Position numbers and translations under genes: made by a program | Notes under the pieces: generated by a model | What the model saw: the letters and a program-made list of their open reading frames with translations, nothing else | The model's database searches: none | Told to the model about the DNA's origin: nothing | Origin: Verrucomicrobiota bacterium | GTDB lineage: Bacteria > Verrucomicrobiota > Verrucomicrobiia > Verrucomicrobiales > DEV007 | Direction of reading: 5' to 3' | Assembly: GCA_024277195.1 (NCBI GenBank) | Contig: JAJRVS010000007.1 | Coordinates: 1-22,424 of the forward strand | Length of the DNA: 22,424 nucleotides | Shown: positions 3,577-22,424 of the stretch, piece by piece | Layout of the letters: each line of letters starts with the position of its first letter | How positions within the stretch are numbered: position 1 is the first letter of the stretch

Positions 3577-3588
3577 TTCGATATTCCC
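3577..3588 (+). repeat. Isolated core fragment of the repeat ('TTCGATATTCCC') between the convergent oppD and kinase genes
   Basis: This is an exact 12-mer of the repeat core in a 65-bp convergent intergenic spacer. It is short, so the call is weak. Confidence 0.3.
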
Positions 3589-3595
3589 AATCGCT

Positions 3596-5923
3596 TTACT
3601 TATTCCTCATCTCCCGCGCCTTCTTCAAAAAGTCATCAACCGAAGTGGTTTTACTTTTAGGAGGAGCGACCGTAGGCCGTGGTCGGGAACTAGCTGTTTT
3701 GGTCGATTTCGGCTTACTTTTCGGTTTAGGCGTCGGAATCCTCGCCAACTTCACGCTACTGCTCGCGGTTTTATCCCCCACGACTTTCACCTTCGCCTCA
3801 GCCTCCCTATAATTCGCCAGCTTTAATTTCAAAGTATGATCCCCCACCGGTGCCTGTAGTTTCAACGGAGTTTTACCCAGGGAAAGCCCCCCCGGTCCGG
3901 TCACCTCCGCCCCCGACGGACTGCTCACAATTTCCATCGTCCCCTGCTCAAAGATCCCGCCCACATCCACTTTTCCATCCCGAACGACTTTATGGCTTTC
4001 CTTGGACAACAACCAGCCGTTCAAAGTCATCGTCACCTCATACTCTCCCGTCGGCAACTCGGCCACTCTCGCCGGTGTCACCCCCTTGCGTGTTGCAAAG
4101 GCCCCGTCGTATGACTCCACCTCCGATGACAGTCGAGCCAGCTCGTAAGCCACACCCTCCGGAGAAGAACCAATCATCAGTGTGCCACGACTGCGCTTCA
4201 ATGTGAGATCGACCTCGGAAAGTTCACCGTTCAACATCGAAACTTCCCGGGTCACCGGCTCAAAACCCGGAGCCTGCACCTCCAGCTGGTAGTTCCCTAA
4301 AGCCAGCCCTTCCATTCTCTGCGGACTGGTGCCACTACTCATTTCCACTCCTTCCTTCCCGGATCCCGCCCCGCCGATCAGCTTCATTGCGGCTCCCTCC
4401 GGTACCGTTTTGACATCTATCCGCCCCCGCAAGGCGTCAATCCGACCCAACTCCCTGAGAGCTTTCACGTCGACCGGCTCCAGCTTCAAAATATTCTCGT
4501 AGATGATCTTCTTCTTCAACTCGTCTGTCCCAGCCTCCATCACACTCTCATGCAGTGCCGTCACCTGTGCACTGAGCTGTGCTTTCTGCTTCGCTGACAT
4601 TTCAGATTTCAGCTTCGCCGCAGCCGTCGCTTTATTCCGGTCTTCCTCTTGTTGGGTCACCAGTAAAGCGGCCGCCTTTGCCTTGCCTGCTGCTTCAAGA
4701 TCAGCCGCTTGCTGGGCCTCGAACTTCACCAATGCGGCCTGCTCACGCTTCGGCGCTTCCACTCCGTACCACCAACCGGCAGCGCCACCGCCCACAAGGG
4801 TGATCACCGCAACCAGGGTCATTACTTTTTTTCCTGACCCACTTTTCTTTTTCCGTCGTTTCGCAGATTGTCCCGGCACCTCCCCACCCGACAGTTCCAG
4901 CCACAAGGCCTCCGCACTCTCCGGGCGCATCTCCGGGTCCTTCGCCAAACAGGACGCCACCACCATTTCCCACTCCTTAGGAATTTTCACAACTTCCACT
5001 CCCTCCGTTCTTAACTCTTTGCGCCGCACAGTGATACTCGGCACCTCGACCGTCTCGATCTGGTGCTGGATATTTCCCCGGTAAAACGGCGGTTTGCCCG
5101 TCAGCAATTCGTAAATGGTCGCACCCAATGCATAGATATCATCGGACACACTAGGCGGATAGCCTGAAGCCTGTTGCGGGCTCATATAGGGCAGCGTCCC
5201 GCTCACCTGCACACTACCCGATGTCAATCGGCTCATCGAATCGGTCAAACTGCCAGCAATGCCAAAGTCCAGCATCCGCAAGGTTCCGTCCATATCCGAC
5301 ATCAAATTGGCAGGTTTCAGATCACGATGCACCACCTTGCAGCTGTGCGCATATCCAAGAGCCTCACAGGACTGCTCAATCCAGTCGGTAATTTCCGCCA
5401 CCTCGAAAGTCTTGTTCGGTTTGCCCACACGCAGCTTGCTCAAAGTCTCGCCCTCGACGTATTCCATCACAATGGCCGCAGAGTGATCATCCTCTACCAG
5501 GTCATGGATACGCACGATATTCGAGTGAGTTAAATCCAGGCAGCGTTTGGTTTCTTCACGCAAGTCATCCAGGGCAGCATCATCCCCCTGCACCGCTTCA
5601 GGTAGAAATTTCAATGCTACTTCCCGGTTCAGTCGCTCGTCCCTTCCCAGCCACACCACTCCCATACCGCCACGACCAATTTGACGAATCAGCGAATATC
5701 GACCAAATGTTTTCAACCCCTCCCGCAATCCCTTCAACGTCACCCCGAAATCAAGATCATCTTCACTGACTTCTGCCTGAGCTTTCAACGAAACCGTTGT
5801 GAGATGTTTTGACGGCAAATCCACCTGCGGTTCCTCCGAAGGTTGCGGATGCCCGGAAACATCGCCGCGCAAAGTCGACCCGACACCGAGATCGTCTTCA
5901 CTATGGTTTGACTCGTCGCTCAT
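3596..5923 (-). CDS. Ser/Thr protein kinase with TM helix, coiled-coil region and C-terminal tandem PEGA domains plus a Lys/Pro-rich tail
   Basis: 775 aa. Kinase motifs are 'GRGGMGVVW', 'VALKFLPE', 'HRDLKPANLM', 'DFGIAG' and 'YMSPQQA'. A hydrophobic segment 'VMTLVAVITLVGGGAAGWWYG' follows. The C-terminus has PEGA-like repeats ('GSSPEGVAYEL', 'VSSPSGAEVTG') and a 'PKPKSKPKS' tail. Confidence 0.85.
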   Translation of the reverse strand: MSDESNHSEDDLGVGSTLRGDVSGHPQPSEEPQVDLPSKHLTTVSLKAQAEVSEDDLDFGVTLKGLREGLKTFGRYSLIRQIGRGGMGVVWLGRDERLNREVALKFLPEAVQGDDAALDDLREETKRCLDLTHSNIVRIHDLVEDDHSAAIVMEYVEGETLSKLRVGKPNKTFEVAEITDWIEQSCEALGYAHSCKVVHRDLKPANLMSDMDGTLRMLDFGIAGSLTDSMSRLTSGSVQVSGTLPYMSPQQASGYPPSVSDDIYALGATIYELLTGKPPFYRGNIQHQIETVEVPSITVRRKELRTEGVEVVKIPKEWEMVVASCLAKDPEMRPESAEALWLELSGGEVPGQSAKRRKKKSGSGKKVMTLVAVITLVGGGAAGWWYGVEAPKREQAALVKFEAQQAADLEAAGKAKAAALLVTQQEEDRNKATAAAKLKSEMSAKQKAQLSAQVTALHESVMEAGTDELKKKIIYENILKLEPVDVKALRELGRIDALRGRIDVKTVPEGAAMKLIGGAGSGKEGVEMSSGTSPQRMEGLALGNYQLEVQAPGFEPVTREVSMLNGELSEVDLTLKRSRGTLMIGSSPEGVAYELARLSSEVESYDGAFATRKGVTPARVAELPTGEYEVTMTLNGWLLSKESHKVVRDGKVDVGGIFEQGTMEIVSSPSGAEVTGPGGLSLGKTPLKLQAPVGDHTLKLKLANYREAEAKVKVVGDKTASSSVKLARIPTPKPKSKPKSTKTASSRPRPTVAPPKSKTTSVDDFLKKAREMRNK

Positions 5924-6025
5924 GATTTAATTCTCTATTATCAATTTTTCATTACCACTTGTCAATTTCCCATTACCCCACCAAAATTCACTCAAAGAAT
6001 ACCAACAGCGTTACTATACGAACTA

Positions 6026-7822
6026 TCATTCAACAAGCTTGCCCTCTAACGCTTGAATCAGAAAACCATCCCCAGTCTTCACCACCACCATTGAAGCCTC
6101 CAGCTCCAGAGAACTTTTTAGCCCGATAAGATTCCGATAAATTTTATTTAACGTCTCATCCGTATCCTGAAAATATTTTACCGCGCCCGATCCGCTACTC
6201 TCGCCATCATACCCATGGTTATTATAACACTCCAAATTAGCATTCAAGATTATCTGATTGAGATTGAGCCCCCCAGACATTTCATTCGTGGGTAGATTCC
6301 CCAAAACCCGCCGGATCTCCCACTCAATATGCGGTTTGATATATTGCCTTTGAACCCCTGCCCCGGATCCTCCCGACATCAACGTCCCAGCCCCACCCAA
6401 ATAAAGATCCTCAAGCATGCCACTGAGGATATTCGCCTTACCAGGGTAGTTTTCCTCATTCAAGCGCTGTTGATACCGGGTGTAGAAATCAACTTCATAC
6501 TCAATAACAACTCTATAATGAGGCTTCTCATTACCCCATTCAAATTTCCCAGTTCCATCCGGACTATTCCTCGGGGGGAAAAGAAAGCCCTTGTCATCAG
6601 CAATACCCGAAGCCAGCCAAACCTTTGCCAGATGGCGATAATAATCTGCAACCTTCGACGGTCTCTCTGCGGCCTCAACAATAATTCGAAAGCCAAGAAA
6701 GTCCCGGCGATCCGAGGGAATCAGGTAGCGACGACGCGATGAGCGAACGGTTAGGGTGTCATCATTGAGCCAAGCTCCTCCGCGAAACACACGGTATTGC
6801 CTCCCACCACCATCATCGTATCCACCTTTGCTGAGAACCGCCCGCACATCGTCGTCGTTCATTTCATCTCGATACCAGTCGTCACACCACTCCCACACGT
6901 TGCCGCCCAAATCATAGAAGCCGGAGGGATTCATCTTATAACCTCCCACTCGAGCTGTGCGCACTGCTCCATCGTCGTAATTCCATCCCTTCCCTGGAGT
7001 TCCTTCCCAACATTCGGAGCCAGCATAGTTTCCCGATCCTCTTGGTGCTGGCCACTCATTTCTCCAGGGATACACCCCACTCGATGCCACCGCGGCACCC
7101 CACTCGCTGTCCCTGGGTAAGTGATAACCAAAACCGGGGTTCTGCTGCGTCAGCCAATTGCAAAAGGCCTGCGCTTCGTTCCAGCTCACACACACCACCG
7201 GATGATCCTCGCTCTGCTTGAATCCAGGATTTTCCCACGAAGCTCCCTTTTCCAATTTCCATTTCTTCAAATTGGAACCACCACTCTTCACATACTTCAC
7301 CACCTCTGCCCCACCTTGCTGCACATAGCCGCTCGCCTCGGCATAAGCCCGAAAATCCCGCACCCGTGTCTCATGACGGCACATCAATACACCAGCTTTT
7401 CCCGGCACTGGTATGAACTCCATACCCAGCGAATTAATAAAAGGGCCCTCCTTCGTCGCCGCCTCCAAACGCTCGACTGCCAGCTCTTGCTGCGATTTTG
7501 GTAACACCGGTGTTAGTTTCGGCGGCGTTACCTTCGATGACATGGATTTTGGCGGCGTTGGTTTCATCACCACCCGCACCGCTGCATTGCTCCCCGGTTT
7601 CAACATCACTCTATGCACCATCCTCTCATACCCCGCCAGACTCAGCTCCCACTTCATCTCCCCGGGCTGCAATTCTTTCAACCCGTTCAGCGGTGTCACT
7701 CCCAGCACTTTTCCGCTTCCGATTTCCCTCACCTCCGCCCCCACCGGATCGCTCAACACCTCCACCTCAACCGGCTCAAAGACAAAGACCATTTCCTTCT
7801 CAACTCCGGCCGACAATGTCAC
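6026..7822 (-). CDS. PEGA + non-catalytic FGE-sulfatase (SUMF1/C-type-lectin fold) domain protein with a ~230-aa C-terminal extension; GTG start; probably a decayed kinase-fusion paralog
   Basis: 598 aa. The PEGA segment is 'VFVFEPVEVEVLSDPVGAEVREIGSGKVLGVTPL'. The FGE domain runs 'MEFIPVPGKAGVLMCRHETRVRDF...HPVVCVSWNEAQAFCNWL...GGNVWEWC...RGGAWLND...GFRI'. The ORF begins with GTG immediately after an in-frame TAG (see pseudogene 7823-8067). Confidence 0.7.
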   Translation of the reverse strand: MTLSAGVEKEMVFVFEPVEVEVLSDPVGAEVREIGSGKVLGVTPLNGLKELQPGEMKWELSLAGYERMVHRVMLKPGSNAAVRVVMKPTPPKSMSSKVTPPKLTPVLPKSQQELAVERLEAATKEGPFINSLGMEFIPVPGKAGVLMCRHETRVRDFRAYAEASGYVQQGGAEVVKYVKSGGSNLKKWKLEKGASWENPGFKQSEDHPVVCVSWNEAQAFCNWLTQQNPGFGYHLPRDSEWGAAVASSGVYPWRNEWPAPRGSGNYAGSECWEGTPGKGWNYDDGAVRTARVGGYKMNPSGFYDLGGNVWEWCDDWYRDEMNDDDVRAVLSKGGYDDGGGRQYRVFRGGAWLNDDTLTVRSSRRRYLIPSDRRDFLGFRIIVEAAERPSKVADYYRHLAKVWLASGIADDKGFLFPPRNSPDGTGKFEWGNEKPHYRVVIEYEVDFYTRYQQRLNEENYPGKANILSGMLEDLYLGGAGTLMSGGSGAGVQRQYIKPHIEWEIRRVLGNLPTNEMSGGLNLNQIILNANLECYNNHGYDGESSGSGAVKYFQDTDETLNKIYRNLIGLKSSLELEASMVVVKTGDGFLIQALEGKLVE

Positions 7823-11712: not shown

Positions 11713-14529
11713 TCATTTTTTCAGACCTCCACAATGCAGCATCTTCCTTCCCAAATATGGATTAAACGGCTTCTCACTGCTGGTCTGCAACCAATCCCCG
11801 CCCCCACCCTTCACCAGCGGGCAATGCAGCACGTAATAACCTTCACGTCCCTGCGCAATCCCAATCACCTGTTTGCTCAGCATTTCAAATTCCTTGCGAA
11901 ACTCTTTGAGCGTTTTTGCAGTGGTTAGAGAGTCGAATTCACTACTCAATAAACGACGACCCTTACCTTCAAGTAATAATGCCGCGTGGCGTTTTGCACT
12001 TGCCAAGTCATCCTTGCTCAAAGCCGTCGCCATATTTATATAAGCTCGCAACATTTGATCGACCTCTGGGACCCCGTCCCTATTGACATATCCAGAGTCA
12101 TTAACGACGACACGGAAACCAAAATTGTCATCCCTCCGCGTTGCAATATTGCTCATCCTTGTCGATAAAAAATAATTATACTCTTCAGCATGCGCCCAGG
12201 ATCCACCACGCATTACGTACCCCTCAGGTTCCATGTGAACACATCCCTGTTTTTTGCAATATTCAAGCGCATAACTACCTTGCATCTCCTTACGAAACCA
12301 GTCTTCACACCACTCCGACACGTTGCCGCCCAGATCATAAAAACCGAAACGATTCACTCTATAACTACCCACCGAAGCTGTCCGTGGATGCCTATCGGCG
12401 TATCCTCCTTCAATTACAGACCAATTGGCTGAAGTAATATTAACCTCTTTACCTTTAAAGTTGCCCTCATCTCCCCTGCTCGGCGGCCATTCATTCCCCC
12501 ATGGATATTTATCAATAGACCCCACCGCAGCACTCCACTCCCCATCACTCGGCAGACGATAGGTATAACCGGGATTCTGCTGCGTCAGCCACTTGCAAAA
12601 TGCTTGTGCTTCATTCCAGCTCACGCACACCACTGGGTGATCCTCGCCCTGCTCAAATCCCGGCCTCTCCCACGAGGCATCCTTGTCCAGCTCCCAAGGC
12701 GTTAAATATTCTCCTTTTTCATTCTTCTTCACTTTCAACACATACGCCCCGCCGCTCTGCACATAATCCGTCGCCTCCACATACGCCCGGAAATCCCGCA
12801 CCCTTGTCTCCGTCCGGCACATCAACACGCCCGGCTTCCCCGGCACCGGCACAAACTCCATCCCCAGTGAATTCATATAAGGGTTCTCCTTCGTCGCCAC
12901 GCCCAGACGCTCACTCGCCAGTTGCTTAGCGGTCTTCGGCAGTCGCTTCATCACCACTCTCACAGCCGCATTGTTTCCCGCTTTCAGCATCGCTCTGTAC
13001 TCGATCTTCTCATATCCCGCCAGACTCAGTTCCCACTTCATCTCGCCAGGCTGCATTCCTTGTAATCCCGTCAACGGTGTCACTCCCAGCACCTTGCCGT
13101 CCCCGACTTCCCTCACCTCCGCTCCCAGCGGTTCGCTCAATAGCTCCACTTCAACCGGCTCAAAAGTAAAAGTCACCCGCGCATTCTCCTCCCCTCCCTT
13201 CAGTTCCACCTCACGTTGTTGTGACGGCCAACTCTCATACTCCGCCACCACCAAATGATTGCCTGGCAACGCTTTATACCTCAACAAACCATCCCCGCCA
13301 GTCGTCCCGACCTCCACTCCGTCCACTCGAATTTTCGCTCCTCCGGGTTCAGTGCCGATTTCCAGCAGCACCGGCGTATTCATCAAGGCCACCTGCCTCG
13401 CCTCTGCTTTTGCCAACTCATCCGCTGCTCGCTTAGCCTCCAGATCCGCCAACGCCACCGCCGCTCGTTTCGGTGCCTCCACTCCATACCACCACCCAGC
13501 CGCCACTCCTGCCGCCAGAACCATCACTGCAGCCATCGTCACCCACTTCTTTCCAGCAGCACTCTTTTCCACTGCCGGTTTCTGGCATTTTTTCACCAAC
13601 GCTTTTTTCTTTCGCCCCTGCACCGCGCCTCCAGACAACTCCGCCCACAACGCCGCCGCACTCTCCGGGCGCTCTTGCGGGTCTTTCGCTAGGCAGGACG
13701 CCACCGCATCTTCCCACAGCAGCGGAATCTTTCCTGCATCTTCAATATCCAACTGCTTGCGCCGCTCCTCCATGCTCGGCGCTTCCAGAGTCTCGATCTG
13801 ATGCTGCACATTGCCCCGGTAAAACGGTGGCCTACCCGTCAACAATTCATAAATTGTCGCTCCCAGCGCATAGACATCATCCGTCGCCGTCGGCGGGTAT
13901 CCCATCGCCTGCTGAGGACTCATATACACCAGCGTGCCACTGGTCGGCGCCCCGGCTGCGGTCAGACGGCTCATCGAATCGGTCAAACTGCCGGCGATTC
14001 CAAAGTCCAACACCCTTAGTTTTCCCTCACCGTCGATCATCAAGTTGGCAGGCTTCAGATCCCGGTGCACCACCTTACGCCCATGCGCGTATTCCAATCC
14101 CTCGCAAGCCTGCCCAATCCACTCGTTGATTTCCCCTACCTCGAACACTTCCTTGTCTTGTTTCAGACGCCTCGCTGTCAACGTATCCCCAGCGACATAC
14201 TCCATCGAAATCGCCGCTGAAGTCCCATCCTCCACCCAGTCGTAAATCCGCACAATGCTCGGATGCGTCAGATTCAGACATTGCATCGTCTCTTTTTTCA
14301 AATCGTTGATCGCTACCGGATCCCCCTGCACCACCTCCGGCAAGAACTTCAGTGCCACCTTGCGCCCCTCAAGCTTTTCATCCTGCCCCAACCACACCAC
14401 TCCCATGCCCCCACGACCCAGCTGGCGGATCAGCGAATAGCGCCCGAACCCCTTCCGCCCAGGCTGCAAACCTTTCAGCGTCGGACCAAAATCAAGGTCA
14501 TCTTCGTTCTGACTGGGATCAGTATTCAT
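11713..14529 (-). CDS. Ser/Thr kinase - TM - PEGA - non-catalytic FGE-sulfatase domain - C-terminal Cys/His-motif (DUF3347-like) domain fusion protein
   Basis: 938 aa. A full kinase motif set is present ('GRGGMGVVW', 'HRDLKPANLM', 'DFGIAG'). The TM helix is 'WVTMAAVMVLAAGVAAGWWYG'. PEGA is 'GTEPGGAKIRVDG' and 'SEPLGAEVREVGDGKV'. The FGE domain runs 'MEFVPVPGKPGVLMCRTETRVRDF...HPVVCVSWNEAQAFCKWL...RGGSW...FGFRVVV'. The C-terminus is 'YVLHCPLVKGGGGDWLQ...NPYLGRKMLHCGG'. Confidence 0.9.
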   Translation of the reverse strand: MNTDPSQNEDDLDFGPTLKGLQPGRKGFGRYSLIRQLGRGGMGVVWLGQDEKLEGRKVALKFLPEVVQGDPVAINDLKKETMQCLNLTHPSIVRIYDWVEDGTSAAISMEYVAGDTLTARRLKQDKEVFEVGEINEWIGQACEGLEYAHGRKVVHRDLKPANLMIDGEGKLRVLDFGIAGSLTDSMSRLTAAGAPTSGTLVYMSPQQAMGYPPTATDDVYALGATIYELLTGRPPFYRGNVQHQIETLEAPSMEERRKQLDIEDAGKIPLLWEDAVASCLAKDPQERPESAAALWAELSGGAVQGRKKKALVKKCQKPAVEKSAAGKKWVTMAAVMVLAAGVAAGWWYGVEAPKRAAVALADLEAKRAADELAKAEARQVALMNTPVLLEIGTEPGGAKIRVDGVEVGTTGGDGLLRYKALPGNHLVVAEYESWPSQQREVELKGGEENARVTFTFEPVEVELLSEPLGAEVREVGDGKVLGVTPLTGLQGMQPGEMKWELSLAGYEKIEYRAMLKAGNNAAVRVVMKRLPKTAKQLASERLGVATKENPYMNSLGMEFVPVPGKPGVLMCRTETRVRDFRAYVEATDYVQSGGAYVLKVKKNEKGEYLTPWELDKDASWERPGFEQGEDHPVVCVSWNEAQAFCKWLTQQNPGYTYRLPSDGEWSAAVGSIDKYPWGNEWPPSRGDEGNFKGKEVNITSANWSVIEGGYADRHPRTASVGSYRVNRFGFYDLGGNVSEWCEDWFRKEMQGSYALEYCKKQGCVHMEPEGYVMRGGSWAHAEEYNYFLSTRMSNIATRRDDNFGFRVVVNDSGYVNRDGVPEVDQMLRAYINMATALSKDDLASAKRHAALLLEGKGRRLLSSEFDSLTTAKTLKEFRKEFEMLSKQVIGIAQGREGYYVLHCPLVKGGGGDWLQTSSEKPFNPYLGRKMLHCGGLKK

Positions 14530-14684
14530 AGGGCTAGTAGAAAAGGATACAAAGACAAAACAATATCAGACTAACGGAGATCATTTCCCCTGTAAATAGG
14601 CATTTTCCAATGAAGGGTCAGTTCCTGCCATTAAGTCATAAATAAATCTTTAAAGATTATATATACTCATGTATAATACTTTAT
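14530..14684. promoter_or_regulatory. AT-rich divergent promoter region between the kinase gene on the minus strand and hipB on the plus strand
   Basis: This 155-bp AT-rich spacer contains 'TATAAT' at about 14672-14677 and several TTG/TATA-like elements. It lies between two divergent gene starts. Confidence 0.3.
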
Positions 14685-15044
14685 ATGAAATCTTCAGTAA
14701 CAGATATCATGCCGCAGCAACTGCGCCGCTCACTCAGCAAATTTGGCAGCGACCTGTCCATAGCGCGACGCAAACGACGCTTAAGCATCGCGATGATATG
14801 CGAACGGCTTGGCGTCTCCAAGTCCACCTGGCAACGAATGGAAAAAGGCGACCCTACGGTCTCCATGGGTGCCTATATTCAAGCGCTCTTTGTCCTAGGC
14901 TTTGGCACTCCGCTAACTGAATTGATTGACCAACGCAACGATGAGCAAGGTCTATTGCTGGAAATCGAGCATCTGCCAAAACGCATCACCCAGCCACGAC
15001 AAAAAAATCATCATGAAACGAAACATTCAGGTATTTTTAGCTGA
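14685..15044 (+). CDS. hipB: XRE-family HTH transcriptional regulator, HipB-like
   Basis: 119 aa. The segment 'RRKRRLSIAMICERLGVSKSTWQRMEKGD' is an HTH_XRE motif. The gene sits directly upstream of, and overlaps by 32 nt, a HipA-N-domain ORF. Confidence 0.7.
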   Translation: MKSSVTDIMPQQLRRSLSKFGSDLSIARRKRRLSIAMICERLGVSKSTWQRMEKGDPTVSMGAYIQALFVLGFGTPLTELIDQRNDEQGLLLEIEHLPKRITQPRQKNHHETKHSGIFS

Positions 15045-15327
15045 AGAAGACACCCCACTGGGAGAACTGCGCTACGACCATCAAGGGCAGCGGGAGAACG
15101 CAGCTTTTGCCTATTCCCATACCTGGCTCGAAAACGGCGAACGGTTTTCTGTCGACCCCGCCTTGCCATTGGTGAGTGGATTCCAATTCCACGCGCGACG
15201 AAGCCAAGGCACTCTATTTCATGGAGCTATCGCCGACACCGAGCCCGATGGTTGGGGACGAAAAGTAATTCTCCGAAACCACGCGAAACTCAGAAAAACA
15301 GCAAAAGCCCAAGGCGAAAAAAAATAA
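15013..15327 (+). CDS. hipS: HipS-like protein, equivalent to the HipA N-terminal subdomain
   Basis: 105 aa. 'MKRNIQVFLAEEDTPLGELRYDHQG...FSVDPALPL...DTEPDGWGR' matches the HipA N-terminal domain. It ends in TAA inside an A8 run, and the next gene starts at the very next codon in the same frame. Confidence 0.6.
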   Translation: MKRNIQVFLAEEDTPLGELRYDHQGQRENAAFAYSHTWLENGERFSVDPALPLVSGFQFHARRSQGTLFHGAIADTEPDGWGRKVILRNHAKLRKTAKAQGEKK

Positions 15328-16272
15328 GTGGACGTCTTGGGGGAACTCGACTTCCTATTGGCAGTGGATGATGAAAGCCGTATGGGAGCTTTACGTTTTT
15401 GCGACGAAGATGGAGTCTTCCAAGCCACACACGGTGAAGGCGAACGGCGCACTCCCCCGCTGATAGAGCTCCACCAGCTTTTTTGCTCTTCCCGCGCTAT
15501 TGAAACCAATACCGAGACTGCTCAGGATCTCGCTTATTTGCAAGGGCGAGGAACCTCCCTCGGGGGTCTGCGTCCAAAATGTTCGATCCGAGATGAAGAC
15601 GGTTCTCTTGCCATTGGAAAATTCCCAAGTGTGGCAGATGAACGCGCTGTGACCAAAGCAGAAGTTCTCACCCTTACCTTAGCAAAACAGGCAGGCATTC
15701 AAGCCGCCGACGCACGCATCGTGATGAGTGAGCAAATACCGATAGCAGTGATCAAGCGCTTTGATCGAACGCCGACCGGGTTCCGCATCCCCTACCTGTC
15801 CGCCGCCACACTTTTGGGAGCAGAACGCGATGACCCCAACGATCATTCCTACACTGAAATAGTTGATGCCCTACGCATCCACGGATACGACGTTCAAGCC
15901 GATATCGAAGAACTCTATCGCCGCATCGCTTTCTCCATACTGATCAACAATGTCGATGACCATCTACACAATCACGGTTTTTTGCATGTAAGGCATGGCC
16001 AATGGCGGCTAGCACCCGCCTTTGATCTAAACCCCTTTCCCCATCGCGCCCGCGAATTAAAAACCTGGATTTCAGAGGATACAGGACCCGAAAGTTCCCT
16101 TACAGCCTTACAGTCAGTAGCCCCCTATTTCCGTATCAAAAAATCCTTGAGCGATACGATCATAGCTCAAGTAACTTCAGCCGTGCAAAACTGGCGGCAA
16201 GTAGGAGCAAAACTGAAGATGAGCAAAACAGAACTCGATGCCTTCAGCGAAGCTTTCGAGGGAAACGCATAA
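15328..16272 (+). CDS. hipT: HipT-like Ser/Thr kinase toxin, equivalent to the HipA core kinase domain; GTG start
   Basis: 314 aa. It carries 'LGGLRPKCSI' (G-x-Q/R-x-K loop), 'NNVDDHLHNHGF' (the catalytic DDHLKN motif) and 'RLAPAFDLNP' (the HipA C-terminal signature). Confidence 0.7.
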   Translation: MDVLGELDFLLAVDDESRMGALRFCDEDGVFQATHGEGERRTPPLIELHQLFCSSRAIETNTETAQDLAYLQGRGTSLGGLRPKCSIRDEDGSLAIGKFPSVADERAVTKAEVLTLTLAKQAGIQAADARIVMSEQIPIAVIKRFDRTPTGFRIPYLSAATLLGAERDDPNDHSYTEIVDALRIHGYDVQADIEELYRRIAFSILINNVDDHLHNHGFLHVRHGQWRLAPAFDLNPFPHRARELKTWISEDTGPESSLTALQSVAPYFRIKKSLSDTIIAQVTSAVQNWRQVGAKLKMSKTELDAFSEAFEGNA

Positions 16273-16289
16273 GATCTACAATGCCCCCT

Positions 16290-16336
16290 CTTCCCTTCAT
16301 CATTCATCAGTTCCTTGTTCGATATTCAATATTCCC
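16290..16336 (+). repeat. ~48-bp repeat copy between the hipT 3' end and the amidase 3' end
   Basis: 'cttcccttcatcattcatcagttccttgttcgatattcaatattccc'. Confidence 0.8.
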
Positions 16337-17189
16337 GCCCTCCCTTCACCGGAATCGCCAGAAAACGCTCAATCCCTCTCGCCACAGCCGCAACGATGCG
16401 CCGCTGAACAATCGGATCCTGAAGCTCCAATTCTTCCTGACGGTTGACAATCACCCCACATTCGACCAGCACCGCTGGCATATCAGCACTGTGCAATACA
16501 ATCAGATCCGGAAAATCATACACCCCGTATTGTGGCAGTCGAAGATCACGACCCTCCCCCTTTATCTTAGCCGCATGATGCAGGGTCGGATGAAATTTCC
16601 CAGCATCCAGAGCCGCACCAATTTCAGCAGCCAATTGAAAACTTTTCACCATCTGTTTATTCCTGGTTGAGAAAAAAACAGAATAACCGCTAAACTGGTC
16701 CGCATACTCCTGTGTCTTCCCATCCACGACCCATTTTTTCTTAAAATGATCCTGACAGGAATCGTGATGTATCGAGATGAACAGACCCGCCTTCGCCTTT
16801 TTGGCTATTTTGGTTCGCTCGCGGAGCGAGGCCACTTTGCCATCCCCGTTGATCAACACCGTCTCATACCCCAGGCCAAGCAATTTTTCATTCAACTTCC
16901 TACCGATCGCCTGATTGAAGTAAAACTCGCCGACCCCACGTGCACTGCCTGCCCCTTGCACCTTGATTGAGTGCCCTATATCAATCGCCACCTTGATATT
17001 TTTCCCAGCCCCAGACTTTGAATCGTCCGTTGATTTCGATGCAGGTGATGCGGCCTTTTTTATTGAGACTCCGCTACTGTCCCCCGAGACAATCTGAGAA
17101 CACCCGCTTTGAACAGTCCCCATAGCAATCCATACCACTGCTGGCAGAATCTTGCAGAAACCCAACATCGTTCTATGATACGCTCTCAT
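16326..17189 (-). CDS. N-acetylmuramoyl-L-alanine amidase (Amidase_3 family) lipoprotein
   Basis: 287 aa. The signal peptide plus lipobox is 'AMGTVQSGCSQ'. The Amidase_3 core is 'IKVAIDIGHSIKVQGAG...LFISIHHDS'. The last codons overlap a copy of the 48-bp repeat. Confidence 0.8.
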   Translation of the reverse strand: MRAYHRTMLGFCKILPAVVWIAMGTVQSGCSQIVSGDSSGVSIKKAASPASKSTDDSKSGAGKNIKVAIDIGHSIKVQGAGSARGVGEFYFNQAIGRKLNEKLLGLGYETVLINGDGKVASLRERTKIAKKAKAGLFISIHHDSCQDHFKKKWVVDGKTQEYADQFSGYSVFFSTRNKQMVKSFQLAAEIGAALDAGKFHPTLHHAAKIKGEGRDLRLPQYGVYDFPDLIVLHSADMPAVLVECGVIVNRQEELELQDPIVQRRIVAAVARGIERFLAIPVKGGREY

Positions 17190-17297
17190 TATTTCGTTGC
17201 TTCAAAAGCCGCCCAATCCCCTGCTGTTTTTCCCCTGTCAAAAAGCAGTCTTCCAAAAACCAGTCGCAGCCCTCATTATTCTACTATTTTTTACGGT

Positions 17298-19292
17298 TTA
17301 CTGTTTCACTTCATTTATCTCTACCACTTCAAAACTGGAACCACTTTCCCTAAGTTTATAGATCCCGCGCATTCTACCACTGTGGACGTGAGAACTTCCC
17401 GAGCTCACCCGGTAATCAAACAACGTCTCTGCGGTGAAATATCCTCCTCCGATATCGCGCACACTCGTCGATGATCCGGAAACAAGTGAATAACTACGGT
17501 TCGGGTATTTCTTGATGTAGGCCCGTCGCCCGTTTCTAATCGTACTCTTACCCACACTGCCTTCGTCATAAAAACGCTCTACCGTGGCGGCATAATACGG
17601 CAGCACTTCATCTATCTGGTTGCTCTCGCCCGCCGCAATGAAGTTAGTGATAAATCTACCGACCGCATTTGCCTTGTTCTGTAGTGTCTGTTGCTTCATT
17701 TCCTCCTGACGCATCGTGGCTTCCTTGGCTCGTTGGATCCCAGCCAAACGGTCAACTTCCTTCTGCCTGGCATCGGCCAACTCCTTCCGACGCCGATCCT
17801 CATCCATCTGTTTCTGACGATCGAGTTCAAGCTGCTTTGCGGCCTCATTTGCCCGTTTTAAATCAGCGGCGGCTTTTTCCATGCGCGCCGTTTTATCAGC
17901 CATATCCCGATCCGAAATCCGTCTCACCACCTGTGCCAAATCCTCCTTTGCCCTCACATTATCCGGATCAATTTTCAGTATCTGCTCGTAGACCGCCTTC
18001 TTCTTGTAATCATCAACCGCAGTCATTCCCACCACACTCTCATACAGCGCCTTCACCCTGTCCTCCCGCTCAGTCACTTGGCGGGCTTGCTCCTGTTCCA
18101 GCTCCGCTTGCGCCTTCGCCGCCTGCGCTTTTTTCTGATCTTCCTGCCATTGCGTCTTCGCTGCCGCCAGATCCACCGGCTCCGGCTCCGTTGACTCTGC
18201 TCCCGGCTTCGGAGCCGCCACCCCTAACCACCATCCCGCCACGGCTAAGACCATAACCGCAGCCACCGCCGCAAAGACCTTCTTTTGTTTCCCCCCCTCG
18301 ACAGCCTCGGTTCCCTGGCTTTTCCCCGTCGAGCGCCGCTTCCCGATCCCATCTCCCACTATCTTTTTTTCCCTCACAACCGGAGTGCTACCACCCGATA
18401 GTTCCGCCCACAGTGCCTCCGCGCTCTGCGGCCGATCCTCCGGATCCTTCGCCAGACAAGACGCCACCACTTCTTCCCACAACTGCGGAATTTTCCCCAC
18501 CCCTTCAATCCCCAATTCCTCACGCCGCTGCTCCATGCTCGGCGGCTCCATGGTTTCAATCTGGTGTTGCACATTGCCCCGGTAAAAGGGCGGTTTACTA
18601 GTCAGTAATTCATAGATCGTTGCTCCTAACGAATAAACATCATCCGTCCGGGTCGATGGGTAACCCATCGCCTGTTGTGGACTCATATAGACCAAAGTTC
18701 CACTCGTCATCGCCCCTCCCGAGGTCAGACGGCTCATCGAATCGGTCAGGCTGCCCGCTATGCCGAAGTCCAGTACCCGCAGCATCCCTTCCCCGTCGAT
18801 CATTAAATTCGCCGGCTTCAGATCCCGGTGCACCACCTTGCGCCCGTGCGCATAATCCAAACCCGCACAGGCCTGCTCGATCCAGTCGCCGATCTCTGCT
18901 ACCTCAAACACCTCGCTGCCTTTCGCCAAACGTCGAGCTGTCAGCGTTTCCCCATTGACATACTCCATCGAGATCGCCGCCGCCGCTCCGTCCTCCAGCC
19001 AGTCGTAAATCCGCACTATGTTCGGATGAGTCAACTCCAGACACTGCATCGTCTCCTTTTTTAAATCATTAATCGCCGCCTGATCCCCCTGCACCTGATC
19101 CGGTAGCCGCTTCAGCGCTACCTCGCGCCCGTCGAGCTTTTCATCCTGCCCCAGCCACACCTCCCCCATCCCACCGCGCCCCAACTGACGAATCAGCGAA
19201 TAGCGCCCGAATACCTTCAAACCATCCCGCCAGCCCCTGAGCGTAGGGCCTGAACCAAGGTCATCTTCGTTGCTGTGCTGGTTGGAATTCAT
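17298..19292 (-). CDS. Ser/Thr protein kinase with TM helix, long charged coiled-coil region and a C-terminal domain of unknown function
   Basis: 664 aa. The N-terminus 'MNSNQHSNEDDLGSGPTLRG' and the kinase motifs are shared with the other paralogs ('HRDLKPANLMID', 'DFGIAGSLTDSMSRLT'). The TM helix is 'VFAAVAAVMVLAVAGWWLG'. The C-terminus shows no FGE domain. Confidence 0.9.
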   Translation of the reverse strand: MNSNQHSNEDDLGSGPTLRGWRDGLKVFGRYSLIRQLGRGGMGEVWLGQDEKLDGREVALKRLPDQVQGDQAAINDLKKETMQCLELTHPNIVRIYDWLEDGAAAAISMEYVNGETLTARRLAKGSEVFEVAEIGDWIEQACAGLDYAHGRKVVHRDLKPANLMIDGEGMLRVLDFGIAGSLTDSMSRLTSGGAMTSGTLVYMSPQQAMGYPSTRTDDVYSLGATIYELLTSKPPFYRGNVQHQIETMEPPSMEQRREELGIEGVGKIPQLWEEVVASCLAKDPEDRPQSAEALWAELSGGSTPVVREKKIVGDGIGKRRSTGKSQGTEAVEGGKQKKVFAAVAAVMVLAVAGWWLGVAAPKPGAESTEPEPVDLAAAKTQWQEDQKKAQAAKAQAELEQEQARQVTEREDRVKALYESVVGMTAVDDYKKKAVYEQILKIDPDNVRAKEDLAQVVRRISDRDMADKTARMEKAAADLKRANEAAKQLELDRQKQMDEDRRRKELADARQKEVDRLAGIQRAKEATMRQEEMKQQTLQNKANAVGRFITNFIAAGESNQIDEVLPYYAATVERFYDEGSVGKSTIRNGRRAYIKKYPNRSYSLVSGSSTSVRDIGGGYFTAETLFDYRVSSGSSHVHSGRMRGIYKLRESGSSFEVVEINEVKQ

Positions 19293-19383
19293 ATAGAATA
19301 GGAGAAATCGTTGTTAATCTATCGAAAAACGGTAGCCAAGTAAACTGTCATTTTTTTACTACCAAACAGCCTTCAATCCAACT

Positions 19384-19668
19384 TTAAAAATTCCTTGCTC
19401 GATATTGGATATTCCCACCCCTTGCTCGATATTCGATATTCCCCACCTCCCCCACATGCCACAGCAGGCGAAAGGCATTGCCGGATGAAACCTTAAACTT
19501 CTTTCCCCATTGATCGACCACCACAGGATTGTCGGGCAGCAAACCCCACAAAAATGCGTGCACCGCTTTATGTCCATGTTCCTTACTAGCCATCGACATC
19601 GAGAGTGGAAACGACGCCTGGGATTCCCGCCACTCGCTAGTGTAGCGGAGCGTATCACCGCTATGTCA
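19384..19668 (-). pseudogene. Truncated hipA-like fragment (N-terminal domain only), cut off by the 48-bp repeat
   Basis: Translation gives 'DTLRYTSEWRESQASFPLSMSMASKEHGHKAVHAFLWGLLPDNPVVVDQWGKKFKVSSGNAFRLLWHVGE'. This resembles the HipA region 'F.Y...W......LSLSLPL........F..LLPEG...........DPFALL..IG'. An upstream stop is present, and the 3' end runs into repeat copies at 19391-19444. Confidence 0.4.
19391..19444 (+). repeat. Two adjacent copies of the heptamer-repeat core ('TTGCTCGATATTSGATATTCCC') of the ~48-bp repeat family
   Basis: Direct reading: 'ttccttgctcgatattggatattccc' and 'cttgctcgatattcgatattcccc'. Confidence 0.8.
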
Positions 19669-19778
19669 CTGATTAGCCATAGCCGCACTGAAGATGGACA
19701 TGTTGAACGAAGATTTCGCCGAATTCGCAAGACTTCTTGAAAAAGCCGAAGTGCGAATTATTACACCCCAAGGGGGTA

Positions 19779-19940
19779 GCCCTATGATAGCCCAGGACAT
19801 CGCCCTGGGTCTGGTCAACAGACCACCATTAGCCCTGAATGGGCGGCCCTAAAGCGTTGAGGATTAATGCCACCCATTCAGGGCTGAAAGATTGGAACTC
19901 AAATACCCAAGGTTTCACCCTGGGCTATCATAGAGTCAGC
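19779..19940. other. A ~150-nt nested-palindrome element: either a structured ncRNA or a MITE-like element
   Basis: A perfect 15-bp inverted repeat 'ctatgatagcccagg' (19782-19796) pairs with 'cctgggctatcatag' (19919-19933). It encloses a 6-bp hairpin 'ggtctg/cagacc' (19810-19824) and a perfect 13-bp inverted repeat 'agccctgaatggg' (19831-19843) with 'cccattcagggct' (19873-19885). A small UUCG-like hairpin 'gcccttcgggc' lies just 3'. No ORF explains the region. Confidence 0.35.
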
Positions 19941-20056
19941 CCTTCGGGCCTGTTAGCCTGACGCGTATGCGAGATCGACTCCCGTACTCCACGAACCACC
20001 CCCAACCCACGCAATGCCATTGCGTCCCACATCCCGCCATTCACACGTCACCTCCT

Positions 20057-20146
20057 CTTCACTTCATCATTCTTCGGTTCCTTGAGGTGCGCTAGATTGA
20101 ACGCCGAAGCTTTAGCGAAGGAGGTTGCTCGATATTGGATATTCCC
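20057..20146 (+). repeat. Long variant of the ~48-bp repeat, with a ~42-bp insert containing 'gcgaaggaggttg'
   Basis: 'cttcacttcatcattcttcggttcct...gccgaagctttagcgaaggaggttgctcgatattggatattccc'. The same insert class occurs in the copy at 21283-21356. Confidence 0.8.
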
Positions 20147-20237
20147 TTCGGGTAATTTCCTCCAGCTGTTTGACTCCGTCTATCTCCACTCCGTTACGGT
20201 TCGTCAGCGAACTGACTCGGCTCCCATTCCTATCTTT

Positions 20238-20284
20238 CTTCCCTTCATCATTCTTCGGTTACTTGTTCGATATTCGATATTCCC
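20238..20284 (+). repeat. ~48-bp repeat copy
   Basis: 'cttcccttcatcattcttcggttacttgttcgatattcgatattccc'. It overlaps the 3' end of the truncated four-helix-bundle ORF. Confidence 0.8.
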
Positions 20285-20640
20285 ACCCTCTTCCTCCACG
20301 CGCCCGCCATTCGGCCGACTTCATCGATCAAGCGGTTCACATGCAGGCATTGCCGCCCACTGATCCAGCTTTTGCTTTCCGCCAGTCGCCACAGAATGCG
20401 TAAAAGTTCCAGTATCAGGTTCAGCTCGTCGAGGTGACCTATGCGCTTAGCAGACTGTCTGGAAAAACGCGCCCGGGTGATTTCCTCCAGCGTAGTCAAG
20501 CACAGATTATCAATCTTTTGCCCGAGAGTAAAACGCTGGCCTTTCGGAAAGTCCGCTGTGCGGCCCAGCGACCATTCAGTCAGCTCGACCGCTACCGTGT
20601 GGATCGGCGGACGTGATGTTTTTATACCTTTGATACCTAT
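20248..20640 (-). pseudogene. Four-helix-bundle protein (PF05635 / 23S-IVS / Avd family) lacking a canonical start codon; its C-terminus is fused into the repeat
   Basis: Translation is '...AVELTEWSLGRTADFPKGQRFTLGQKIDNLCLTTLEEITRA...LDELNLILELLRILWRLAE...RLIDEVGRMAGAWRKRV'. It matches the family pattern 'FPK.ERY.L.SQ..RAA.SI..NIAEG ... ELETQL.IA ... EEIGKML'. Upstream there is no ATG/GTG before an in-frame TGA, so the only start is a TTG mid-protein. The last residues 'GISNIEQ' are encoded by the repeat. Confidence 0.45.
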
Positions 20641-20765
20641 TCACTCCCTATGAACGGCCACGCGGATTACCAATCGGCAATCTCACCAGTCAATTGTGGG
20701 GCAATCTTTTCCTCGATGCCTTGGATCACCTGATCACAGAAACAGAAGCTCATGGATGACAAGAA

Positions 20766-20826
20766 ATGAATATCGAATATCGAGCAAGGAGTGTTGAATG
20801 ATGAAGGAAATAGAATGAAGAAAGAG
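20766..20826 (-). repeat. Inverted copy of the ~48-bp repeat
   Basis: The plus strand reads 'gaatatcgaatatcgagcaaggagtgttgaatgatgaagg'. Its reverse complement is 'ccttcatcattcaacactccttgctcgatattcgatattc'. Confidence 0.7.
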
Positions 20827-20862
20827 TAACCAAATAAAGCTTAGTAAATAAGCTAGGTAACT

Positions 20863-21231
20863 TTATTGCTTTTTTAGGTTTTTCTGGGCGGTTGTGATAC
20901 TTACCACAAAAATGGAGATCAGTTCATTGTTTTCCTCGATGATCGAAGATAGTTTATCTGGAGCATCTACTAAAGGTTTGCGCTGGATAATGAGAAGCCA
21001 GACTAGTGTTTCTCTCAATTCTTTAAGAGCAATTTTCATTTTATGAATGAAGTCTTTCCGGGATTCGGCACTCTGCGCTTCCCCATAGTTCGGCGCAGGT
21101 GATGTACAAGATCGCACAAGTTGCCCCGCCACATGATTCCCCGCTCGCGAATCAGGCAATATCTCAACGACATTCAAAATCCTAACCGCAAATTCAATCA
21201 GCCGTTCCTGCAAGTCATAATCACGTTTCAT
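20863..21231 (-). CDS. Four-helix-bundle protein (PF05635/TIGR02436; the family that includes DGR Avd and 23S rRNA IVS proteins)
   Basis: 122 aa. The sequence 'LIEFAVRILNVVEILPDSRAGNHVAGQLVRSCTSPAPNYGEAQSAESRKDFIHKMKIALKELRETLVWLLI' fits the 'FPK..RY.L.SQL.RSA.SI.SNIAEG..R.S.KEFI.FL.IA.GSL.E' pattern. Confidence 0.75.
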   Translation of the reverse strand: MKRDYDLQERLIEFAVRILNVVEILPDSRAGNHVAGQLVRSCTSPAPNYGEAQSAESRKDFIHKMKIALKELRETLVWLLIIQRKPLVDAPDKLSSIIEENNELISIFVVSITTAQKNLKKQ

Positions 21232-21282
21232 CTTTACTACTCCCCCTCCAATTTTTCTTCATTCTTATATTTCTTCACTTCA

Positions 21283-21460
21283 TCATTCTTCGGTTCCTCT
21301 TGACCGCAGAAGCCTTGGCGAAGGAGGTTGTTCGATATTGGATATTCGATATTCCCTTCTTCTTCACTTCATCATTCTACTGTTCCTTGTTCGATATTCG
21401 ATATTCCCATCTTCTTCACTTCATCATTCTACTGTTCCTTGTTCGATATTCGATATTCCC
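21283..21460 (+). repeat. Tandem array of three ~48-53-bp repeat units: one long variant and two near-identical 53-bp units
   Basis: The units are at 21283-21356 (with the 'gcagaagccttggcgaaggaggttg' insert), 21362-21408 and 21414-21460. Both short units read 'cttcacttcatcattctactgttccttgttcgatattcgatattccc' with a 53-bp period. There are no unique spacers. The array ends 5 bp from the stop of the FGE-domain gene. Confidence 0.85.
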
Positions 21461-21464
21461 TACC

Positions 21465-22424
21465 CTAGCCGCCAACGCCAACCACCACCAAACGGAAGCC
21501 GTAGTAATCGTTTGGCTCCGCCGGAGTAGCGCCGTCGCGGTACGAGGAACGGAGAGCGATCTCCCTACCGCCGAACCAGGAACCACCACGCAACACGCGG
21601 TAACTAGTTCCTCCTTTATCATCAAACCCTAGCTTCTTCAAATCAGCCACCACATCACTGTCATTCAGCTCATCTCGATACCAATCCTCGCACCACTCCC
21701 ACACATTGCCGCCCAAATCATAAAACCCAAATCGATTCATCTTATATCCTCCCACTCGCGCTGTTCTCTCCGCTCCATCTTCGTAGTCATACGCAACACT
21801 CCATTCACTTTTGAAACTATTCATTACCTCCTTACCAAAATAATTGCCCGCCCCTTTCGGCGCCGGCCATTCATTTCCCCATGGATACTTGCCCAGCGAC
21901 CCCACTGCCGCACTCCACTCCCCATCACTCGGCAGACGATAGCTATATCCGGGATTCTGCTGCGTCATCCACTTACAAAAGGCCTGCGCTTCATCCCAAC
22001 TCACGCACACCACTGGATGATCCTCACTCTGCTCAAATCCTGGTTTCTCCCACGATGCTTCTTTATCCAATTCCCACCCCAGTGAATACTTCCCCTCATC
22101 GTTCTTTTTATCTTCCAACACATACGCCCCGCCACTCTGCACATAATCTGTAGCCTGCGCATACGCCCGAAAATCCCGCACCCGTGTCTCCGTCCGGCAC
22201 ATCAACACCCCCGGCTTCCCCGGCACTGGCACGAACTCCATCCCCAACGAATTCACATAGGGACTCTCCTTGCTCGCTGCTGCCAAGCTCTCCGCCTTCA
22301 GTTTCTTTTCCAATAGACCACCACCCGAGGTCACCCCCAGCGCCTCTCCATCAATCACAATTTTTGCCCCTCCAGGTTCACTGCCAATCTTCAAACTCGT
22401 CATCAGCGCCGACTCTGCCGCTGC
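21465..22424 (-). CDS. PEGA + non-catalytic FGE-sulfatase domain protein, 3' part; the ORF continues past the window edge and is probably another kinase-fusion paralog
   Basis: The FGE domain runs 'MEFVPVPGKPGVLMCRTETRVRDF...HPVVCVSWDEAQAFCKWM...GGNVWEWCEDWYRDE...RGGSWFGG...YYGFRLVVV' followed by a stop. The frame stays open upstream of the internal Met through 22424 ('AAAESALMTSLKIGSEPGGAKIVIDG'). This is collinear with the TM-proximal part of the 938-aa paralog. Confidence 0.85.
   Translation of the reverse strand, partial: AAAESALMTSLKIGSEPGGAKIVIDGEALGVTSGGGLLEKKLKAESLAAASKESPYVNSLGMEFVPVPGKPGVLMCRTETRVRDFRAYAQATDYVQSGGAYVLEDKKNDEGKYSLGWELDKEASWEKPGFEQSEDHPVVCVSWDEAQAFCKWMTQQNPGYSYRLPSDGEWSAAVGSLGKYPWGNEWPAPKGAGNYFGKEVMNSFKSEWSVAYDYEDGAERTARVGGYKMNRFGFYDLGGNVWEWCEDWYRDELNDSDVVADLKKLGFDDKGGTSYRVLRGGSWFGGREIALRSSYRDGATPAEPNDYYGFRLVVVGVGG

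Follow-up and report, generated by a model that had tools for sequence, protein, structure and literature searches.

A heptad repeat at gene ends in a Verrucomicrobiota contig as the probable terminal arm of a four-helix-bundle gene cassette

In this study, we asked what kind of element a short repeat is that recurs at the ends of genes in a 22,424-nucleotide (nt) stretch of DNA from a Verrucomicrobiota bacterium (contig JAJRVS010000007.1, positions 1 to 22,424; the whole stretch is referred to here as the window). An earlier note on this DNA had described a family of units of about 48 bp with a tandem heptamer core, and had suggested for it an element resembling a miniature inverted-repeat transposable element (MITE) or a repetitive extragenic palindrome (REP), a recombination site delimiting cassettes, or a regulatory or terminator-associated motif. 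We propose that the unit is likely to be the inverted arm found at each end of a small cassette whose central gene encodes an S23p/Avd-like four-helix-bundle (4HB) protein, and the same design of a gene flanked by heptamer arrays is found in many bacterial phyla.

The repeat family itself is real. Its core, TTCGATATTSRATATTCC, with at most two mismatches, matches the window ten times (at 16318, 19398, 19425, 20128, 20266, 20767 on the minus strand, 21331, 21338, 21390 and 21442) and shuffled sequence not once, and a profile built from related copies finds nine arms where copies had been reported (at 16293, 19374, 19420, 20125, 20242, 20768 on the minus strand, 21328, 21364 and 21416). Tandem Repeats Finder gives a 52-bp tandem array at 21341-21461 (2.3 copies, 97% matches), which bears out the array that the earlier note had placed near 21283-21460, and the core 12-mer noticed at 3577 was recovered at 3577-3588. 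In an alignment of 132 copies from the window and other genomes, the unit measures about 45 nt and carries TTC at six positions exactly 7 nt apart (ACTTCnnnATTCnnnATTCCTTGTTCGATATTCGATATTCCC). The description of a tandem heptamer core therefore holds as to the heptamers but not as to their limitation to two units: the two-unit core is the best-conserved end of a six-heptad array, in which only two or three neighbouring units are identical and the remaining units share TTC alone. GAA/TTC is retained in the heptads and the other four positions are variable. Two of the arms contain, at an identical position, related inserts of 43 nt (20084-20126) and 30 nt (21300-21329), which are the shared insert seen previously. 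Both inserts have the common end GCGAAGGAGGTT, a strong Shine-Dalgarno-like sequence on the plus strand, and they had no match among the 213 loci fetched by the time of that search.

Read on the gene strand, the arrangement consists of a 5′ arm of GAA-N4 heptads, a 4HB open reading frame (ORF) of about 370 nt and the inverted complement of the arm. The 5′ arm has about six heptads, GAAT/GAAC-N3 units followed by GAAGGA (consensus GGGAATATCGAATATCGAACAAGGAATGTCGAATGTCGAAG), and the GAAGGA at its inner end lies 2-10 nt from the start codon, in the position of a ribosome-binding site. The commonest length of a complete element is 446 bp. The window's intact cassette runs from 21462 to 20766 on the minus strand, with three 5′ arms, of which the innermost is interrupted, a 122-amino-acid (aa) gene (21231-20863) and one 3′ arm, which reads ...CTTCATCATTCAACACTCCTTGCTCGATATTCGATATTC on the gene (minus) strand:

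20766..20826, minus strand: 3′ arm of the intact cassette (profile match 20768-20808 on the minus strand; pairs with the 5′ arm in the RNA fold)
20863..21231, minus strand: intact 4HB gene, 122 aa, the probable cassette cargo (PF05635, TIGR02436, PDB 2RLD)
21273..21356, minus strand: innermost 5′ arm, split by the 30-nt insert (21300-21329), with three heptads in the distal half; pairs with the 3′ arm in the fold
21357..21462, minus strand: two more tandem 52-bp 5′ arms (Tandem Repeats Finder, period 52, 97% matches; profile matches 21364-21410 and 21416-21462)

Tandem 5′ arms occur in other loci as well, with five copies in L019 and two in L118. In the predicted RNA fold of the window cassette, the 5′ and 3′ arms pair around the ORF (-167 kcal/mol, z=-4.8). 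The protein matches PF05635 (E=1.4e-13), TIGR02436 (E=4e-23) and PDB 2RLD (E=1e-15), an entry with five chains; it has more than 7,900 homologues at E<=1e-10, mostly on very short contigs, and 8,178 clusters (50% identity) match the family at E<=1e-3. Residues N48, E51, R58 and K64 are among its invariant positions. In the earlier note, the four-helix-bundle gene appeared only as a victim of truncation. A truncated Avd-type fragment does end in an arm, but the role of the intact gene as cassette cargo had been overlooked.

The association of gene and arm is also seen when loci are collected through the protein. Using a 4HB protein search alone, 80 metagenome loci were retrieved (62-75% identical to the window protein), and a GAA-type arm lies no more than 150 nt upstream in 60 of 79 and a TTC-type arm downstream in 60 of 77, with both arms present in 55. 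Most loci that are without a canonical arm carry inverted arrays of other heptads (GATTGTT, CAATATC, GAATGCA). Spacings that are a multiple of 7 account for 51% of GAA-GAA distances upstream and 64.5% of TTC-TTC distances downstream, compared with 15% in shuffles, and stretches of period 7 are 10.8 times denser within 130 nt of the 4HB gene than in the rest of the same loci, while periods 5, 6, 8 and 9 are essentially absent in this comparison. An arm also resembles its partner in the same element more closely than it resembles the arms of other elements (local alignment score 22.9 vs 15.1; higher in 59 of 70; p=7e-11).

The genomic settings of these cassettes are diverse. Upstream neighbours are on the same strand in 51 of 55 cases (93%) and downstream neighbours in 45 of 56, and they belong to 77 Pfam families upstream and 52 downstream, mostly with housekeeping functions; one cassette sits between MoxR and DUF58 of a Bat operon and another between a MiaB-like radical-SAM gene and an HD-domain gene. 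A site between two ketoacyl-synthase genes recurs in 11-13 loci, and there the 4HB gene has a dN/dS of 0.06-0.11 with synonymous sites saturated, while the arms retain their heptad structure. Because the neighbour families are many and dN/dS is low at a saturated shared site, the cassette appears to be widely inserted and yet, where resident, old and selectively maintained.

The earlier note had allowed that the repeat might be no more than a local duplication. Contrary to this, a 23-nt core pattern was found at more than 118 genome loci, under at least eight phylum-level labels, among the matches listed, to which the counts of core loci and arm pairs in this paragraph refer. The labels include Planctomycetota, Verrucomicrobiota, Kiritimatiellota/Lentisphaerota (Pontiellaceae, Victivallales), Acidobacteria, Pseudomonadota, Bacteroidota (Saprospiraceae, metagenome-assembled genomes (MAGs) labelled Chitinophaga, Sediminibacterium, Bacteroidales), Rhodothermales, Desulfobacterota (Desulfobacteraceae) and Nitrospirales; 17 loci come from one Planctomycetota MAG and five from a Desulfobacterium scaffold set, and several matches are on contigs longer than 1 megabase. 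Lineages differ from one another in the less conserved half of the arm, each having a variant of its own, which argues against contamination and for homogenisation within each genome; among the matches listed, the variant nearest to that of the window is found in a Verrucomicrobiota MAG (L067). The core-pattern loci contain 52 inverted arm pairs, whose loops are mostly 4-90 nt long, and two loops of 340-520 nt (in the window and in L052) contain a recognised 4HB gene, with ORF-less pairs outnumbering ORF-bearing ones by about 10 to 1. We take the ORF-less inverted pairs, the solo arms and the tandem arms to be derivatives of the cassette. Using blastn, the arm had no match in plasmid or phage collections, and among 2.9 million viral contigs the core was found in a single one, as an inverted pair (L214 9346-9431, an IMG/VR contig). 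The viral contigs contained no relative of this 4HB subfamily; Avd genes of diversity-generating retroelements (DGRs), taken as a negative control, gave two viral hits, both weak.

Such a distribution invites comparison with a MITE/REP-type DNA element that is mobilised in trans by a transposase encoded elsewhere (e.g. a REP-associated or insertion-sequence-family enzyme) and carries the 4HB gene as passive cargo. The terminal inverted repeats, the many copies per genome (the 17 loci in one MAG), the excess of ORF-less pairs and the insertion into many unrelated operons would fit this explanation, as would the very short contigs on which most homologues are found, which are expected of a repeat that breaks assemblies. 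In this sense the likeness noticed by the earlier note survives as an analogy. As an explanation we nevertheless consider it unlikely, since no target-site duplication, for which the earlier note had proposed to look, was found at 50 complete elements, and no transposase adjoins any copy examined, the 4HB gene being the only coding partner, in an inspection of neighbourhoods that was made without a genome-wide transposase search for these ends. Furthermore, strong purifying selection on the 4HB gene and 93% co-orientation with host genes speak against passive cargo in a transposable element, and the heptads differ by 4HB lineage while the period stays 7, which one pair of transposase ends would not predict.

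This last point comes in part from distant 4HB genes. The 11 plasmid 4HB genes examined (36-48% identical), from Nostoc, Aulosira, Dolichospermum, Anabaena, Planktothrix, Bernardetia and Treponema, all have heptamer arrays on either side, which in about 10 cases are clearly inverted, with heptads that include the following:

Nostoc and Aulosira: TTCAAAA / TTTTGAA, flanking the 4HB gene
Nostoc and Dolichospermum: AATTCGT / ACGAATT, flanking the 4HB gene
Nostoc: AATTCGC / GCGAATT, flanking the 4HB gene
Nostoc: GAGGTCG / CGACCTC, flanking the 4HB gene
Planktothrix: CCCCAAT and CGTAAAT, flanking the 4HB gene; the CCCCAAT repeat is one that we take to be STRR1 (Mazel 1990)
Treponema: TGGAAAG / CCGCTCT, flanking the 4HB gene

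Nine of the 11 plasmid genes are co-oriented with their annotated neighbours, and those of Anabaena and Aulosira are antisense. In the Anabaena cylindrica PCC 7122 plasmid pANACY.01 (L223), the 4HB gene, with AAAGTRA heptads, lies between cas2 and cas1 and is antisense to both. Two Bacteroides relatives of 2RLD have AATTGAC / GTCAATT arrays on both sides: one, 98% identical, lies between araD and araA, and the other, 79% identical, between aminotransferase and DAHP synthase genes. Of the 26 arms of these distant plasmid and Bacteroides genes, 14 are 4.3-4.7 units long, which corresponds to five copies of a core. The Xanthomonas S23p structure 2GSC was beyond the reach of the 4HB profile. Every 4HB lineage sampled is flanked by lineage-specific arrays of period 7, and what the lineages have in common is this period and not an exact sequence.

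In the araD-araA spacer (L228, L230), AATTGTC/AATTATC heptads stand upstream of the 2RLD-type gene in two units in one sample and in four in another, which indicates that the arrays change by slippage in natural populations. It could accordingly be argued that the arrays are nothing but neutral products of replication slippage, for which a match of 7 nt to the footprint of a polymerase has been proposed, and that they survive wherever an intergenic gap tolerates them, also beside 4HB genes. Among long simple repeats, heptamers are the commonest kind in many bacteria, and an origin by slippage has been suggested for them (PMC4679880, PMC4692102); apart from the two Bacteroides samples, the copy number of heptads is also known to vary between Coxiella strains (PMC4990558). 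Slippage alone would leave unexplained why the period-7 signal is 10.8 times enriched beside 4HB genes within the same loci, why the arrays form inverted pairs on both sides of the gene, why GAA/TTC is kept as the other four positions vary, and why the arm structure persists where synonymous positions are saturated. We therefore regard a purely neutral origin as improbable, somewhat more so than a transposase acting in trans.

How such a cassette might act can be outlined as follows. It lies just behind a co-oriented host gene, often inside an operon, and would probably be expressed by read-through transcription; neither a promoter nor a terminator signal of its own is seen, and the window has no excess of promoter-like or terminator-like sites over shuffles. 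In the transcript, the arms are predicted to base-pair over about 40 bp, including a perfect core of 22 bp, so as to close a loop that contains the ORF, and the paired arms would be a putative substrate of RNase III, as in the ORF-containing intervening sequences (IVSs) of 23S rRNA. The 7-nt register might mark a putative array of binding sites for a pentameric 4HB ring, with about five sites per arm. We infer this function of the heptads because their period is conserved but their sequence is not, because there are about five units per arm, and because the protein is a ring.

A wider proposal, which we put forward as a possibility and hold far more tentatively than the cassette itself, is that S23p/TIGR02436 4HB proteins are the missing partners of the intergenic heptanucleotide repeats (STRR, GGGAATC, AATTGAC and the arms described here). 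Each subunit of the putative pentameric ring would contact one GAAT/GATT-N3 heptad, about five in all, in RNA or in single-stranded DNA, and in every 4HB lineage protein and heptad would evolve together. The gene would be enclosed by its cognate arrays, and the ORF-less arrays and inverted pairs, which are far more numerous, would be targets in trans. If this is true, the ORF-less arrays would constitute a post-transcriptional regulon, or else the non-autonomous members of a new selfish element that crosses phyla. Apart from this wider proposal, the arrays beside the 4HB genes physically couple two puzzles that date from the early 1990s, namely the role of intergenic heptanucleotide repeats and the function of S23p/Avd-like proteins outside DGRs; the protein becomes a candidate for binding the repeats, and the repeats become its candidate ligand. 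In addition, the heptad arms explain why metagenome assemblies break at 4HB genes and why spurious ORFs with peptides such as GISNIEQ and NIEYR have been annotated. The novelty lies in the link between gene and repeat. No literature linking heptamer repeats to four-helix-bundle proteins was found in a search whose coverage left out most subscription journals, and an earlier report is possible.

Several observations weigh against the cassette and its proposed mechanism and are best considered together. The absence of target-site duplications counts here as well, no mobility enzyme was found, and a search for empty sites, in which the joined flanks were compared with all fetched loci, returned filled sites only. 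As the core-pattern loci were chosen by that pattern, the identity of the core across phyla is partly a matter of construction. In the window, most arms lack an inverted counterpart with which to form a stem, and in other genomes the bias of solo arms to gene 3′ ends, an enrichment for which the earlier note had proposed to test, is present but modest (30 vs 16, from crude gene calls). In ORF-less hairpins, the complementarity of the arms is barely above that of arms from different elements (1895 vs 1823 +/- 19.5), which suggests that beyond the 22-nt core there is no strong selection for perfect pairing. Arms contain between 2 and 11 heptads, so that a strict five-site rule fails, and the arrays on the Bernardetia plasmid are direct and not inverted. 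Lastly, read-through expression, cleavage by RNase III and binding by the 4HB protein are inferences.

A further case that does not fit a cassette defined by its 4HB gene is found in a Sediminibacterium MAG (L103 4441-5267), where a GAA-type and a TTC-type arm enclose a non-4HB ORF of 203 aa whose N-terminus resembles a signal peptide, perhaps through a swap of cargo.

The remaining arms of the window, which led the earlier note to the 3′ ends of genes, can now be considered:

16293..16337, minus strand: solo arm over the stop codon of the amidase gene (16326-17189), found by core and profile
19374..19444, minus strand: full arm and half arm, in which the hipA N-terminal fragment (19384-19599) has its C-terminus and stop, found by core and profile; 81 nt upstream of the kinase start (19292)
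20057..20146, minus strand: solo arm with the 43-nt insert (20084-20126), found by core match
20238..20286, minus strand: solo arm, in which the truncated Avd-type gene (20248-20499) has its final 11 codons (GISNIEQVTEE) and its stop, found by core and profile
3577..3588, minus strand: 12-nt remnant TTCGATATTCCC (repeat family D16), 8 nt beyond the stop codon of the kinase gene 3596-5923

As had been observed before, co-oriented genes lie immediately upstream of the copies, and arms contain the stop codons of three ORFs: at 16326 that of the amidase gene, at 19384 that of the hipA N-terminal fragment and at 20248 that of the Avd-like fragment. The array adjoins the stop codon of the FGE gene (21465) as the earlier note had it, at a distance of 2-4 nt and not 5. 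On the gene-sense strand, the arm variant of the window has a stop in all three frames within 45 nt, as read directly from its sequence, and this is why ORFs that read into the arms end there. At 13 of 41 non-redundant sites, arms are located just after stop codons, within -4 to +3 nt. We rejected a targeting of stop codons, because the cluster at -4 nt is mostly one site shared by descent (six or seven of the 13).

The same 13 sites, together with the stable hairpins that inverted pairs could make, are what might be cited for the view that the arms terminate transcription, or stabilise mRNA 3′ ends as hairpins, and that the host selects for them. This we judge very unlikely. The bases that follow the arm are mixed T/C/A and contain no T-run (a U-tract in the transcript), terminator-like sites are no commoner than in shuffles, most copies in the window are single arms in which no hairpin is possible, and cassettes are found between co-transcribed genes of operons; the shared descent of six or seven of the close cases further lessens their number. 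Among other candidates, no Rfam family reached threshold at the arms or cassettes of the window or of seven hairpin/cassette loci, the one match to an arm pair being a chance, sub-threshold match to a plant miRNA precursor, and the window contains no tRNA or tmRNA. Two further candidates within the arm, a CsrA-type site (ACAAGGA) and a mini-ORF (MMK), were dropped because each is confined to some variants.

Five of the further arms lie in one stretch of the window. The FGE-kinase paralogous pair at 3596-7822 has a spacer of 102 nt, while the members of the pair at 17298-22403 are 2.2 kb apart, and the 2.2 kb hold the intact cassette, the truncated DGR-type Avd gene, the hipA N-terminal fragment, a hairpin of 190 nt and these five arms. 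The stretch appears to be an island of insertion and recombination debris bounded by arms. Window arms bound short segments with gene fragments (Avd′, hipA′) and a toxin-antitoxin-type remnant, and in L103 a different ORF lies between the arms; both would be expected if the arms were attC-like sites for site-specific recombination that delimit mobile gene cassettes, as the earlier note had considered. There is no integrase gene near the arms in the window, and most copies are single ones in housekeeping operons and are not arrayed. Sites of the attC type carry RYYYAAC/GTTRRRY cores, and on reading its sequence the arm has none. Of the explanations weighed here we find this the least credible, and we continue to favour terminal arms of a 4HB cassette.

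The truncated gene at 20248-20499 (minus strand) is of the DGR Avd type (NF033474, phrog_3206), lacks the N-terminal third and is separate from the 4HB gene of the cassette. It lies near three FGE-sulfatase-domain paralogs (6026-7822, 11713-14529, 21465-22403), and the FGE-sulfatase fold is common among DGR target proteins. The window ORFs that were scanned contain no reverse transcriptase domain, the 3′ end of the FGE gene (21465-21572) is not repeated in the window and no template repeat was found; the Avd fragment and the FGE paralogs may be what is left of a decayed DGR. At 19755-19965, with an arm on one side and the hipA fragment on the other, is the near-perfect nested hairpin of about 190 nt (-107 kcal/mol as RNA, z=-7.6, with none of 200 shuffles as stable). 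It has no Rfam match and may be an unrelated MITE or a structured RNA. The window also contains three paralogous sets of Ser/Thr kinase and FGE-sulfatase/PEGA genes (3596-7822, 11713-14529, 17298-22403; 63-84% DNA identity, families D1-D10); in one of these sets the two genes are fused and encode one protein of 938 aa. On the plus strand, at 14669-16272, is a complete toxin module of the HipA type, a Couple_hipA ORF followed by a HipA_C ORF, and the hipA N-terminal fragment that ends in an arm (19384-19599, minus strand) is separate from it. Nearly all genes are on the minus strand and the GC skew is uniformly and strongly negative (about -0.1 to -0.45, from 500 to 22000), so that the contig probably lies within one replichore.

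The cassettes share features with several known systems. Like MITEs and REPs, they are short palindromic elements that occur between genes in multiple copies, each coding copy being matched by many non-coding ones; they differ from them in having neither a target-site duplication nor a transposase partner, and in their internal period of 7 nt and a core that is near-identical across phyla. From Avd of DGRs the cassette gene differs in being of the TIGR02436 type, with no reverse transcriptase, template repeat or variable repeat beside it. Avd is reportedly a pentamer. It has the same four-helix-bundle fold and is an accessory protein that handles nucleic acid (PMC10053308). By analogy only, a ring oligomer that would putatively bind a row of short conserved triplets set apart by variable spacers, one per subunit, recalls TRAP and its trp leader RNA (GAG/UAG for TRAP, GAA here), although TRAP has an unrelated fold, 11 subunits and spacers of 2-3 nt.

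Closer parallels are the intergenic heptanucleotide repeats, which have been described as GGGAATC in Xanthomonas (186 sites and 70 inverted pairs in X. campestris), as GGGGATT in Nostoc, in Calothrix, and as TAACTGA in Beggiatoaceae, cyanobacteria and Bacteroidetes (PMC4692102, PMC4679880). Formation of G-quadruplexes, polymerase slippage and binding of S1, Csp or CsrA have been proposed to account for them, and the two papers make no mention of 'four-helix', 'S23' or 'helix bundle' (PMC4692102, PMC4679880). These repeats (cyanobacterial STRR CCCCAAT and others, GGGAATC, GGGGATT, TAACTGA) are tandem 7-nt intergenic units, often in convergent inverted pairs, with positions conserved between species and a scattered distribution across phyla, all of which applies to the arms described here. 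In another register GGGAATC reads GAATCGG, which shares the GAAT core seen here. The published arrays repeat one near-perfect heptamer, whereas the arm is a fixed series of six different heptads that share only GAA/TTC.

The closest known relatives are the IVSs of 23S rRNA in Coxiella burnetii, Leptospira, Xanthomonas and Brucella. In the Coxiella IVS, an inverted-repeat stem that RNase III cleaves encloses an S23p ORF with 3-4 GACAGAT heptamers ahead of it, and S23p of Xanthomonas has been cited as a homopentameric ring (PMC4990558). The cassettes differ from these IVSs in being located in protein-coding operons and intergenic gaps and not in rRNA helices (the Rfam search found no rRNA in the window), in their heptads (GAATATC/GAATGTC compared with GACAGAT in Coxiella) and in their many ORF-less and single-arm derivatives. 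The ORFs differ too: that of the cassette has a good ribosome-binding site and evolves under strong purifying selection, and that of Coxiella is in decay and probably not translated. In both, an inverted-repeat stem surrounds a sense-oriented ORF of about 120 aa from the same family, tandem heptamers precede the ORF, and the element is part of a host transcript, in our case through the presumed read-through; the sizes are similar (428 nt in Coxiella and about 446 bp here), and both are regarded as selfish and horizontally spread (PMC4990558).

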